A stretch of 24,335 bases of DNA from an uncultured Gammaproteobacteria bacterium (GCA_964623155.1 CAZUUL010000002.1:1-24335), one strand, 5' to 3'; positions 20,948-21,499 are shown, numbered from the stretch's first letter. Notes: generated from the sequence alone by a model not told the origin. Translations and numbers: made by a program.

Positions 20948-20975
20948 TTGCCATTATTTCGTTTTGTGGTAGAAT
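20948..20975 (+). promoter_or_regulatory. sigma70 promoter with extended -10 driving a candidate RNA
   Basis: TTGCCA (20948), 16 nt, TAGAAT (20970), TG at 20967. Confidence 0.65.
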
Positions 20976-20980
20976 AACAT

Positions 20981-21051
20981 TGTCGAGCGTGAAGCGGACC
21001 CTCGCCGTTAAAGCGGTGAGTGTGGCCGATAAGTGCCCGACATTTTTATTT
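20981..21051 (+). ncRNA. candidate structured RNA convergent with the DUF3800-like gene
   Basis: UGUCGAGC/GCCCGACA closing stem, CGG-A-CC/GGCCG, CUCGCCG/CGGUGAG apical stem, then UUUUUAUUU reaching the opposing stop codon. Confidence 0.65.
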
Positions 21052-21499
21052 AGAACAGCAGCTTCAATAGCTGGTCTTCTGTAATTCGTTTAACTTCTGA
21101 CCTTTGTTTTGTACGGTGCACTCTCCATGCCAATTGATGTGCAGAAGCATGTTTCCCAATCCTTCCAAACGTGATCATTCCTTGCCCTTTTCTCTCCATG
21201 TGCCTTTTTATTAGTTTTTCCAGTGTCTCTTTAATGATTTCTTCTTTGCCCGTGTACTCTTCATCAATTTTTAGTGTCATAGTTTGTTTCACTGGCTGAA
21301 TAAGAATAAACACTGCCAGAGCGAAGACTATTGGATACAAATCTTTTCTGGGGATGAGGCTTTTCCGTAAATACGTTACAATCTTTCTTTTTGTTCCAGC
21401 TTTGATATACACTACACGACTTGTATCATTTGCACATGCAAGAACAGTGTCTGTATCGAGCTGTTCTAATTTACCACTCTGATCAATTTCGATGGCCAT
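21050..21499 (-). CDS. compact DUF3800-like (RNase H-like fold) protein
   Basis: N-terminal IEIDQSG resembles VFIDDSG of 22654-23280; LKIDEEY and ITF...AHQLAWRVHR occupy matching positions. The family call is inference. Confidence 0.55.
   Translation of the reverse strand: MAIEIDQSGKLEQLDTDTVLACANDTSRVVYIKAGTKRKIVTYLRKSLIPRKDLYPIVFALAVFILIQPVKQTMTLKIDEEYTGKEEIIKETLEKLIKRHMERKGQGMITFGRIGKHASAHQLAWRVHRTKQRSEVKRITEDQLLKLLF

Follow-up and report, generated by a model that had tools for sequence, protein, structure and literature searches.

The window analysed here is a stretch of 24,335 nucleotides (nt) from an uncultured Gammaproteobacteria bacterium (GCA_964623155.1, CAZUUL010000002.1:1-24335). 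Positions 20948-21499 hold a predicted two-gene module, a small RNA (sRNA) on the plus strand and a gene for a 149-amino-acid protein on the minus strand, which face each other. The sRNA is preceded by a sigma-70-type promoter (20948-20975, plus strand) with a −35 box TTGCCA (20948-20953), a 16-nt spacer and a TG-extended −10 box TAGAAT (20970-20975). In a promoter scan, TTGCCA-16-TAGAAT had 10 of 12 consensus matches and the TG extension. The predicted transcription start, at approximately 20981-20983, coincides with the foot of helix P1. The core of the sRNA, which we call type A, is a three-helix rod at 20981-21042 (plus strand), delineated by the minimum free energy fold, a covariation alignment and covariance model R1. 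It consists of P1 (20981-20988 with 21035-21042), P2 (20995-20997 with 21026-21028) and P3 (21001-21007 with 21014-21020), the last closed by the loop UUAAAG (21008-21013). An A-rich variable internal loop (20989-20994 and 21029-21034) separates P1 from P2, and a conserved internal loop, ACC (20998-21000) facing UGUGG (21021-21025), separates P2 from P3. A K-turn or loop-E identity for the conserved loop, judged by eye, was dropped because its sequence misfits their consensus.

Downstream of the rod comes UUUUUAUUU (21043-21051), the final bases of which complement the TAA stop codon (21050-21052) of the protein gene. This U-tract, TTTTTATTT plus A (21043-21052, plus strand), forms with P1 the predicted intrinsic terminator of the sRNA. 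The gene itself (21050-21499, minus strand) encodes a basic, RNase H type 1-like protein that begins MAIEIDQSGK. Promoter, rod and U-tract on the plus strand therefore converge on the stop codon of the minus-strand gene. An earlier, sequence-only reading of the window had described a 149-amino-acid protein with an IDQSG motif, this promoter and a three-stem rod ending in the T-rich tract at the stop codon, and all three were confirmed by the open reading frame (ORF), the promoter scan, and the fold and coordinates, respectively.

On the plus strand, the segment 20975-21056 folded into a single rod (−28.1 kcal/mol, z = −3.96), which none of 200 shuffled sequences matched. The minus strand of the same segment was nearly as stable (−25.4 kcal/mol, z = −3.88). 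Since it folds almost equally well, the strand of the RNA cannot be fixed from the fold of a single sequence. The sequence-only reading had favoured the plus strand and had called the strand evidence mixed. The latter is correct for the single sequence but not for the comparative data described below, which fix the plus strand.

Judged by its homologues, the type A RNA is a genuine conserved RNA gene with selected structure and loops. An nhmmer search with the window element gave matches in the loci of the closest protein homologues, immediately past the stop codon and opposite to the gene, and 55 distinct type A RNA homologues were found. With a covariance model made from homologue flanks, as the sequence-only reading had suggested, the RNA was antisense to, and abutting, the stop codon of the protein homologue in 60 of 60 testable loci (13 of 13 genome loci, L001-L012 and L022, and 47 of 47 metagenome loci; L numbers denote homologous loci). 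Loci were testable if downstream DNA was present and the protein was at least ~40% identical to that of the window. In an alignment of 40 distinct sequences (A3), 87.9% of cells were paired, compared with 31-38% in slid controls whose pairing partners were shifted by one to three columns. Compensatory changes, affecting both sides, occurred in 14 of 18 base pairs, and none of 500 shuffles attained any of the five observed measures. Conservation extended to unpaired bases, namely the ACC and UGNGG strands of the internal loop and the U and A residues of the UAAAAG loop, which were invariant across lineages with proteins merely 40-60% identical. Model R1, built from homologues, scored the window element at 80.8 bits (E about 2e-16). 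In ~870 kb of family loci, searched on both strands, its matches were confined to sites antisense to and abutting family genes, and it had none elsewhere. Covariance models were used for this purpose because a regular-expression census of P1-like stems was too crude. Our confidence that the feature is real is high.

The transcription signals were conserved along with the RNA. A promoter with at least 9 of 12 consensus matches lay at the equivalent place in 39 of 53 homologous loci, its −10 box mostly ending 5-10 nt before P1, and many of these promoters were perfect (TTGACA-N16-18-TATAAT). Such near-consensus promoters imply high constitutive expression. A run of at least four T residues directly followed P1 in 50 of the 53 loci. 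The predicted transcript would thus be essentially the rod and its U-tail, ~65-72 nt long, without a single-stranded 5' guide. Strand was also evident from irregular pairs: G-U pairs outnumbered A-C mismatches 30 to 6 in type A, three irregular pairs excluded, and 34 to 4 in a second RNA type (type B, see below). The G-U excess, the promoters and the U-tracts together show, at the level of sequence comparison, that the RNA strand lies opposite to the gene; in the window this is the plus strand. The closing stem had appeared to favour the minus strand in the sequence-only reading because of the pair A9-C61, an irregular pair that recurs in type A. Rfam 15 had no match at E ≤ 10 within 20850-21150.

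More distant protein homologues were accompanied by different RNAs in the same position and orientation. One of them, type B, was found in Saccharibacteria, Berkelbacteria, WWE3 and others. It has the same P1-P2-internal loop-P3 plan as type A, with CGACC facing an invariant UUAA. In an alignment of 20 type B sequences, 95% of cells were paired and 15 of 19 pairs showed compensatory changes. The corresponding model, R2, gave ~33 strong sites, located after the stop codon of a family gene on the opposite strand. R1 and R2 weakly detected each other's RNAs at the correct spot (L027, 27 bits with R1; L085, 26.7 bits with R2), which suggests that the two types are of common descent. RNA type followed protein clade, and this co-diversification, together with the cross-detection, indicates that gene and RNA descend as one unit. 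In Chloroflexi (L015-L076) and DPANN archaea (L048-L080), longer or different antisense RNAs were seen by eye at the same position. A GAUCGGG...CCCGAUC foot is common to many of these, and an additional hairpin is present in the Chloroflexi versions (also by eye). Rfam 15 gave no match at E ≤ 1 in 12 loci with RNAs other than type A (type B, Chloroflexi, archaeal).

Some loci contained two family paralogues 1-3 kb apart (L084, 970-2993; L041; L051; L141). In L084, with a type A and a type B-like RNA, and in L041, each paralogue had its own, different RNA; the paralogues of L051 and L141 had their own RNAs as well, as far as these were checked. Distinct RNAs at tandem paralogues are expected for specific protein-RNA pairs. 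Several metagenome-assembled genomes (MAGs) had two family copies on different contigs. The sole locus seen with a duplicated RNA was L064 (4413-4592), where two adjacent type B copies (46.4 and 29.3 bits) lay downstream of one gene.

The protein belongs to a family of its own. A search of 5.8 billion proteins yielded 83 relatives, nearly all of 147-155 amino acids; none of them had a Pfam domain, and the few that were named were called hypothetical. A profile search of 1.84 billion cluster representatives gave 1091 clusters (defined at 50% identity) at E ≤ 0.001, 690 of them at E ≤ 1e-10, and the best-scoring 150 clusters all consisted of single-domain proteins. In pattern scans, species-representative genomes yielded 142 relatives and JGI metagenomes 443; the 142, confirmed among 185,579 species genomes, are a lower bound limited by the pattern. 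Hosts were Patescibacteria (Gottesman-, Ames-, Roizman-, Berkel- and Saccharibacteria, WWE3), Chloroflexota and DPANN archaea. Searches with the protein against Pfam, NCBIfam, PHROGs and PDB sequences were all negative, in line with the earlier supposition that it is unannotated. Family alignments showed invariant residues D6, Q7, S8, G9, T18, K37, D79, E81, Y82, G115 and H121 and the family-specific conserved motifs DQSGK, IDEEYTGK and GKxSxAH. The isoelectric point was 9.8 for the window protein; across the family, its median was 9.9 and that of the net charge +11.

An AlphaFold2 model based on a 72-sequence alignment was of high confidence (predicted local distance difference test score, pLDDT, 91.3; predicted template modelling score, pTM, 0.88). 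Its elements follow the order b1-b2-b3-a1-a2-b4-a3-b5-a4 (strands 2-8, 18-23, 28-32, 75-79 and 109-112; helices 34-45, 51-67, 86-100 and 119-130). A Foldseek search of the PDB with this model returned E. coli RNase HI (1g15, E 4.7e-4) as the top match, followed by RNase H domains of HIV-1 reverse transcriptase. These matches had template modelling (TM) scores of 0.44-0.50 and a probability of about 1.0, at a sequence identity of merely 9-14%. In BFVD, phage RNase HI proteins ranked first. According to the model, the 149-amino-acid protein is an RNase H-like fold resembling type 1, with the canonical RNase HI strand order. Of the conserved residues, D6 falls within b1, D79 closes b4 and H121 is at the start of the helix that follows b5; E80/E81 are conserved as well.

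No other conserved partner of the module was found. In an all-against-all clustering of 2313 ORFs from 165 loci, no partner protein occurred in more than about 11 of 142 distinct loci, not counting a spurious antisense ORF inside the gene itself. Neighbours varied between S1/RadA, BipA/ThrRS, a 5'-3' exonuclease with a glycosyltransferase, and NUDIX at some loci, and AbiEii, BrnT/CopG or NYN at others. In the window and in L167, the module lies among toxin-antitoxin and abortive-infection genes (AbiEii, Fic, MNT/HEPN, BrnT, NYN, and DUF3800 with its own RNA).

We propose an autonomous module of protein and sRNA: the RNA would serve as the protein's specific ligand and would probably restrain a nuclease, much as an RNA antitoxin does. 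To this reading we assign a rough probability of 0.45. The module would comprise two genes, for a small basic RNase H type 1-like protein and for a cognate sRNA of ~65-70 nt. The latter would be convergent, driven by a strong promoter of its own, and would end in an intrinsic terminator directly adjoining the stop codon of the protein gene. Once folded, the RNA would be bound through a recognition surface made of the internal loop (ACC facing UGNGG), the P3 loop with its UAA and the conserved P1 foot. Abundant RNA would then hold back a metal-dependent nuclease, acting as an RNA antitoxin or gate. Given the convergent layout, the sRNA might in addition base-pair with read-through mRNA, giving a second level of control. 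A role as ligand is favoured because the invariant unpaired bases are needless for a cis-antisense RNA and needed for a binding site, and because the RNA has neither complementarity to the gene's 5' region nor a guide-like tail. RNA-protein binding, nuclease activity and antitoxin-like logic are what we infer, with moderate confidence in the mechanism. An RNA-gated nuclease would fit the nuclease-type fold, the strong constitutive promoter, the sporadic multi-copy distribution, the neighbourhoods rich in toxin-antitoxin genes and the precedent that type VII retrons provide with their DUF3800 effectors.

Several observations weigh against this proposal. At the helix-A position of the DEDD tetrad, the family has the invariant K37 instead of glutamate, and there is no obvious equivalent of the glutamate. 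Because of this missing equivalent and the lysine in that helix, the protein may bind rather than cut. A search of IMG/VR viral contigs did not detect the family, and the protein is not represented among the PADLOC models. At several loci the module is flanked by housekeeping genes (BipA/ThrRS, S1/RadA, 5'-3' exonuclease/glycosyltransferase). Sequencing runs containing the window were DNA runs only and gave no clean transcript data. Contigs from aquatic metagenome runs labelled 'RNA-Seq' matched only the sRNA segment of L113 (2967-3045), with 4 mismatches; these contigs run on into unrelated flanks and come from a relative's locus.

One alternative is that the sRNA acts without protein binding, as a cis-antisense regulator that pairs with the 3' end of the convergent mRNA and leads to degradation or transcriptional interference. 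The geometry suits such a role, since the two genes converge, the RNA terminator touches the stop codon and the RNA promoter is strong. No U-tract follows the hairpin on the gene strand; transcription of the mRNA therefore probably continues across the RNA gene, which would give it full complementarity to the sRNA, and an overlap of the sRNA with the mRNA 3' end is thus plausible from the layout. The convergent 3' geometry is shared with the Bacillus type I toxin-antitoxin systems TxpA/RatA and BsrG/SR4. In these B. subtilis systems, the gene converges with an sRNA that is strongly expressed and reaches the 3' end of the gene (the expression being a prediction in our case). However, type I toxins are short and hydrophobic and their RNAs act by base pairing alone, whereas here the protein is a 149-amino-acid soluble RNase H-like domain and the RNA has conserved structure and loops. 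Complementarity given by geometry cannot explain the invariant unpaired bases, the compensatory changes in helices across phyla or the conserved P1 foot. The sRNA also showed no excess of pairing with the 5' untranslated region or start region of its own gene (median z +0.2 over 36 loci). We consider a purely antisense function unlikely.

Equally, the pair could be a housekeeping ribonucleoprotein or an enzyme with its substrate, the RNA being a cofactor, a scaffold or a processed substrate without any toxin or defence logic. RNAs encoded beside their protein partner exist, such as bacterial Ro and Y RNA. The location of many loci amid translation and replication genes lends some weight to this alternative, as do the broad occurrence of the family in the reduced genomes of Patescibacteria and DPANN archaea and the combination of a basic protein with an RNase H fold. 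Against it stand the sporadic distribution (at least 142 among 185,579 species genomes, subject to the limit of the pattern), the presence of several paralogues with different RNAs in some MAGs, the lack of conserved synteny, and the co-location with toxin-antitoxin genes in the window and L167. Because of the housekeeping neighbours we retain this alternative, although we doubt it.

The sequence-only reading had taken the protein for a minimal member of the DUF3800/RNase H-like group, which would make the RNA one more DUF3800-associated motif. The window itself holds a DUF3800 gene that served as a control (22654-23280, minus strand; PF12686 at 71.6 bits), which also matches the PADLOC candidate defence models PDC-M04A and PDC-S51. 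It is accompanied by a DUF3800-IX RNA (RF02968; 22574-22642, plus strand; 63.4 bits in the Rfam scan) with a TG-extended promoter TTGAAC-17-TATAAT (22534-22562, plus strand), and this RNA and gene are convergent, as in the 149-amino-acid module. The two modules have more in common: both proteins are basic and RNase H-like, each with a convergent, promoter-driven RNA of ~65-70 nt that ends near the stop codon. The b1 motif [IV]DQSG resembles the IDDSGD of DUF3800, and the BFVD fold search included one DUF3800 phage protein (rank 25, TMq 0.49). UAA in conserved loops is a trait noted for DUF3800 RNAs by Weinberg et al. (PMC5737381).

Sequence and structure nevertheless separated the two families. 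PF12686 matched none of 37 members of the 149-amino-acid family at E ≤ 5. An hhalign comparison of this family (alignment A4) with the window's DUF3800 subfamily (A5) gave a probability of 3.6%, that is, no relation, with only a 19-column helix match at non-equivalent positions; A5 represents a narrow DUF3800 subfamily, so this value is compatible with very remote homology. Hallmarks of DUF3800 are an N-terminal D-E/D-D motif in b1 and a C-terminal QxxD motif (PMC7736814), represented in the control protein by D6 D7 and the invariant Q170/D173. In the 149-amino-acid family the N-terminus reads D6-Q7-S8-G9, in which D and SG are as in DUF3800's DDSGD and the second acidic residue is a glutamine. 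QxxD is absent, and the corresponding helix holds G115-K116-x-S118-x-A120-H121. When the control was modelled with AlphaFold2 (pLDDT 89.9), helices separated b2 from b3, and every significant match of this model in the PDB (E ≤ 0.01) was an RNase HII (1eke, 1i39, 1uax; TM 0.55-0.60). This agrees with the description of DUF3800 as an RNase HII-like fold with rearranged topology (PMC7736814, PMC10910872). Among the motifs with Rfam models, no DUF3800 RNA, nor drum or skipping-rope, matched the type A element at E ≤ 10, in the same scan that recovered DUF3800-IX at 22574-22642.

Membership of DUF3800 was rejected on the PF12686 and hhalign results, the missing QxxD, and the differing topology and nearest folds (RNase HI here, RNase HII only for the DUF3800 model), and we regard it as very improbable. 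Of the earlier claim, the RNase H-like part thus stood (pLDDT 91.3, RNase HI and HIV RNase H closest in Foldseek) and the DUF3800 part fell. On these sequence profiles and models, the 149-amino-acid protein and DUF3800 are placed on different branches of the RNase H-like superfamily, with a likeness in working that may remain. The expectation that the DUF3800-RNA partnership extends to a second protein subfamily was similarly right about a conserved RNA partner; with membership rejected, the partnership reaches another RNase H-like branch instead of a DUF3800 subfamily.

That the element is a mere intrinsic terminator or a chance hairpin, as a GC-rich stem with a T-run beside a gene end might suggest, was ruled out by the comparative data: it has its own promoter, three covarying helices, invariant loops and a link solely to one protein family, and it cannot be the terminator of a convergent neighbour, since the next called gene ran in the same direction as the protein gene in all six loci read (L081, L084, L165, L168, L170, L171).

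The protein family and its RNAs are absent from the libraries searched, and no paper describing either was found in the literature. The architecture itself is known from Weinberg et al. 2017 (PMC5737381), who reported that RNA motifs DUF3800-I to -XI adjoin DUF3800 proteins. In both cases a small basic RNase H-like protein has a dedicated structured sRNA at its side, ~65-70 nt long, with a promoter of its own and a terminator at its end, many unrelated-looking RNA shapes occur per protein family, and UAA is frequent in conserved loops. The proteins differ in that no hidden Markov model or other profile relates them, QxxD is missing and the fold is RNase HI-like here and RNase HII-like there. 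DUF3800-IX RNA is a three-way junction, whereas the RNA described here is a rod without an Rfam match.

RNase HI (E. coli rnhA, retroviral RNase H) provides the nearest solved folds. The protein shares with it the b1-b2-b3-a-b4-a-b5-a succession of elements, aspartates in b1 and at the end of b4, and a histidine located in the helix that follows b5. It differs in its 9-14% identity, the lack of any sequence-level match, the helix-A glutamate that is not evident, and its own motifs. Type III toxin-antitoxin systems (ToxIN, CptIN, TenpIN) are likewise autonomous two-component systems in variable contexts, and in them a nuclease is neutralised by a bound, adjacent, structured RNA, the logic that we propose here. 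Their antitoxin is a tandem-repeat RNA that lies upstream on the same strand and is processed by the toxin, in contrast to the single-copy, downstream, convergent RNA of the present module, and their toxins have a Kid/CcdB-like fold rather than an RNase H fold. Type VII retrons are made up of a reverse transcriptase, a non-coding RNA (ncRNA) and a DUF3800 effector (Mestre et al. 2020, PMC7736814). They resemble the module in tying an RNase H-like effector to a structured ncRNA, a functional tie that is proposed in our case. Unlike them, the module has no reverse transcriptase gene in its vicinity, and its protein belongs to another family.

Toxin-antitoxin and defence-type genes abound elsewhere in the window. 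Genes were assigned to NYN (1441-2016), AAA_14 with DUF4143 (2952-4244), Fic/DOC (13516-14640, minus strand) and AbiEii (14769-15425, minus strand), and large ORFs without a Pfam match were located at 4831-7044, 7044-8537 and 15582-16850. An MNT gene (20090-20425) and a HEPN gene (20343-20780) form a pair that is bracketed by a 160-nt direct repeat of 90% identity (19900-20059 and 20770-20929). The 3' end of a 388-amino-acid ORF (18910-20076) is duplicated beyond the MNT/HEPN cassette. Because the flanking repeat duplicates this 3' end, the pair has the appearance of an insertion of 870 bp with target duplication. One paralogous family without a Pfam match comprises five of the window's ORFs, among them 17865-18968 and probably 18910-20076 (Pro/Thr-rich); none of the 164 other loci showed this family.

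The association of DUF3800 with RNA has been unexplained since 2017, with eleven RNA shapes for one domain and no hypothesis of a role offered. The same architecture has now appeared in a second, sequence-unrelated RNase H-like family. Given this recurrence, at least two covarying RNA types and paralogue-specific RNAs, it looks like a general design principle. We tentatively suggest, as a possibility with less in its favour than against it, that sRNA-gated small RNase H-like proteins are a general, unrecognised class of protein-RNA modules that resemble RNA antitoxins or abortive-infection systems. If so, DUF3800 (RNase HII-like) and the 149-amino-acid family (RNase HI-like) would be independent or anciently diverged instances of this class. 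The many RNA types would then be orthogonal specificity partners, which would account for the 11 unrelated-looking RNAs of DUF3800. With a protein of 149 amino acids and an RNA of 65 nt, the module is a very compact system for tests of binding, toxicity and specificity swaps. It also adds a structured RNA class and a protein family that are both abundant in Patescibacteria, whose ncRNA repertoire is almost unexplored.
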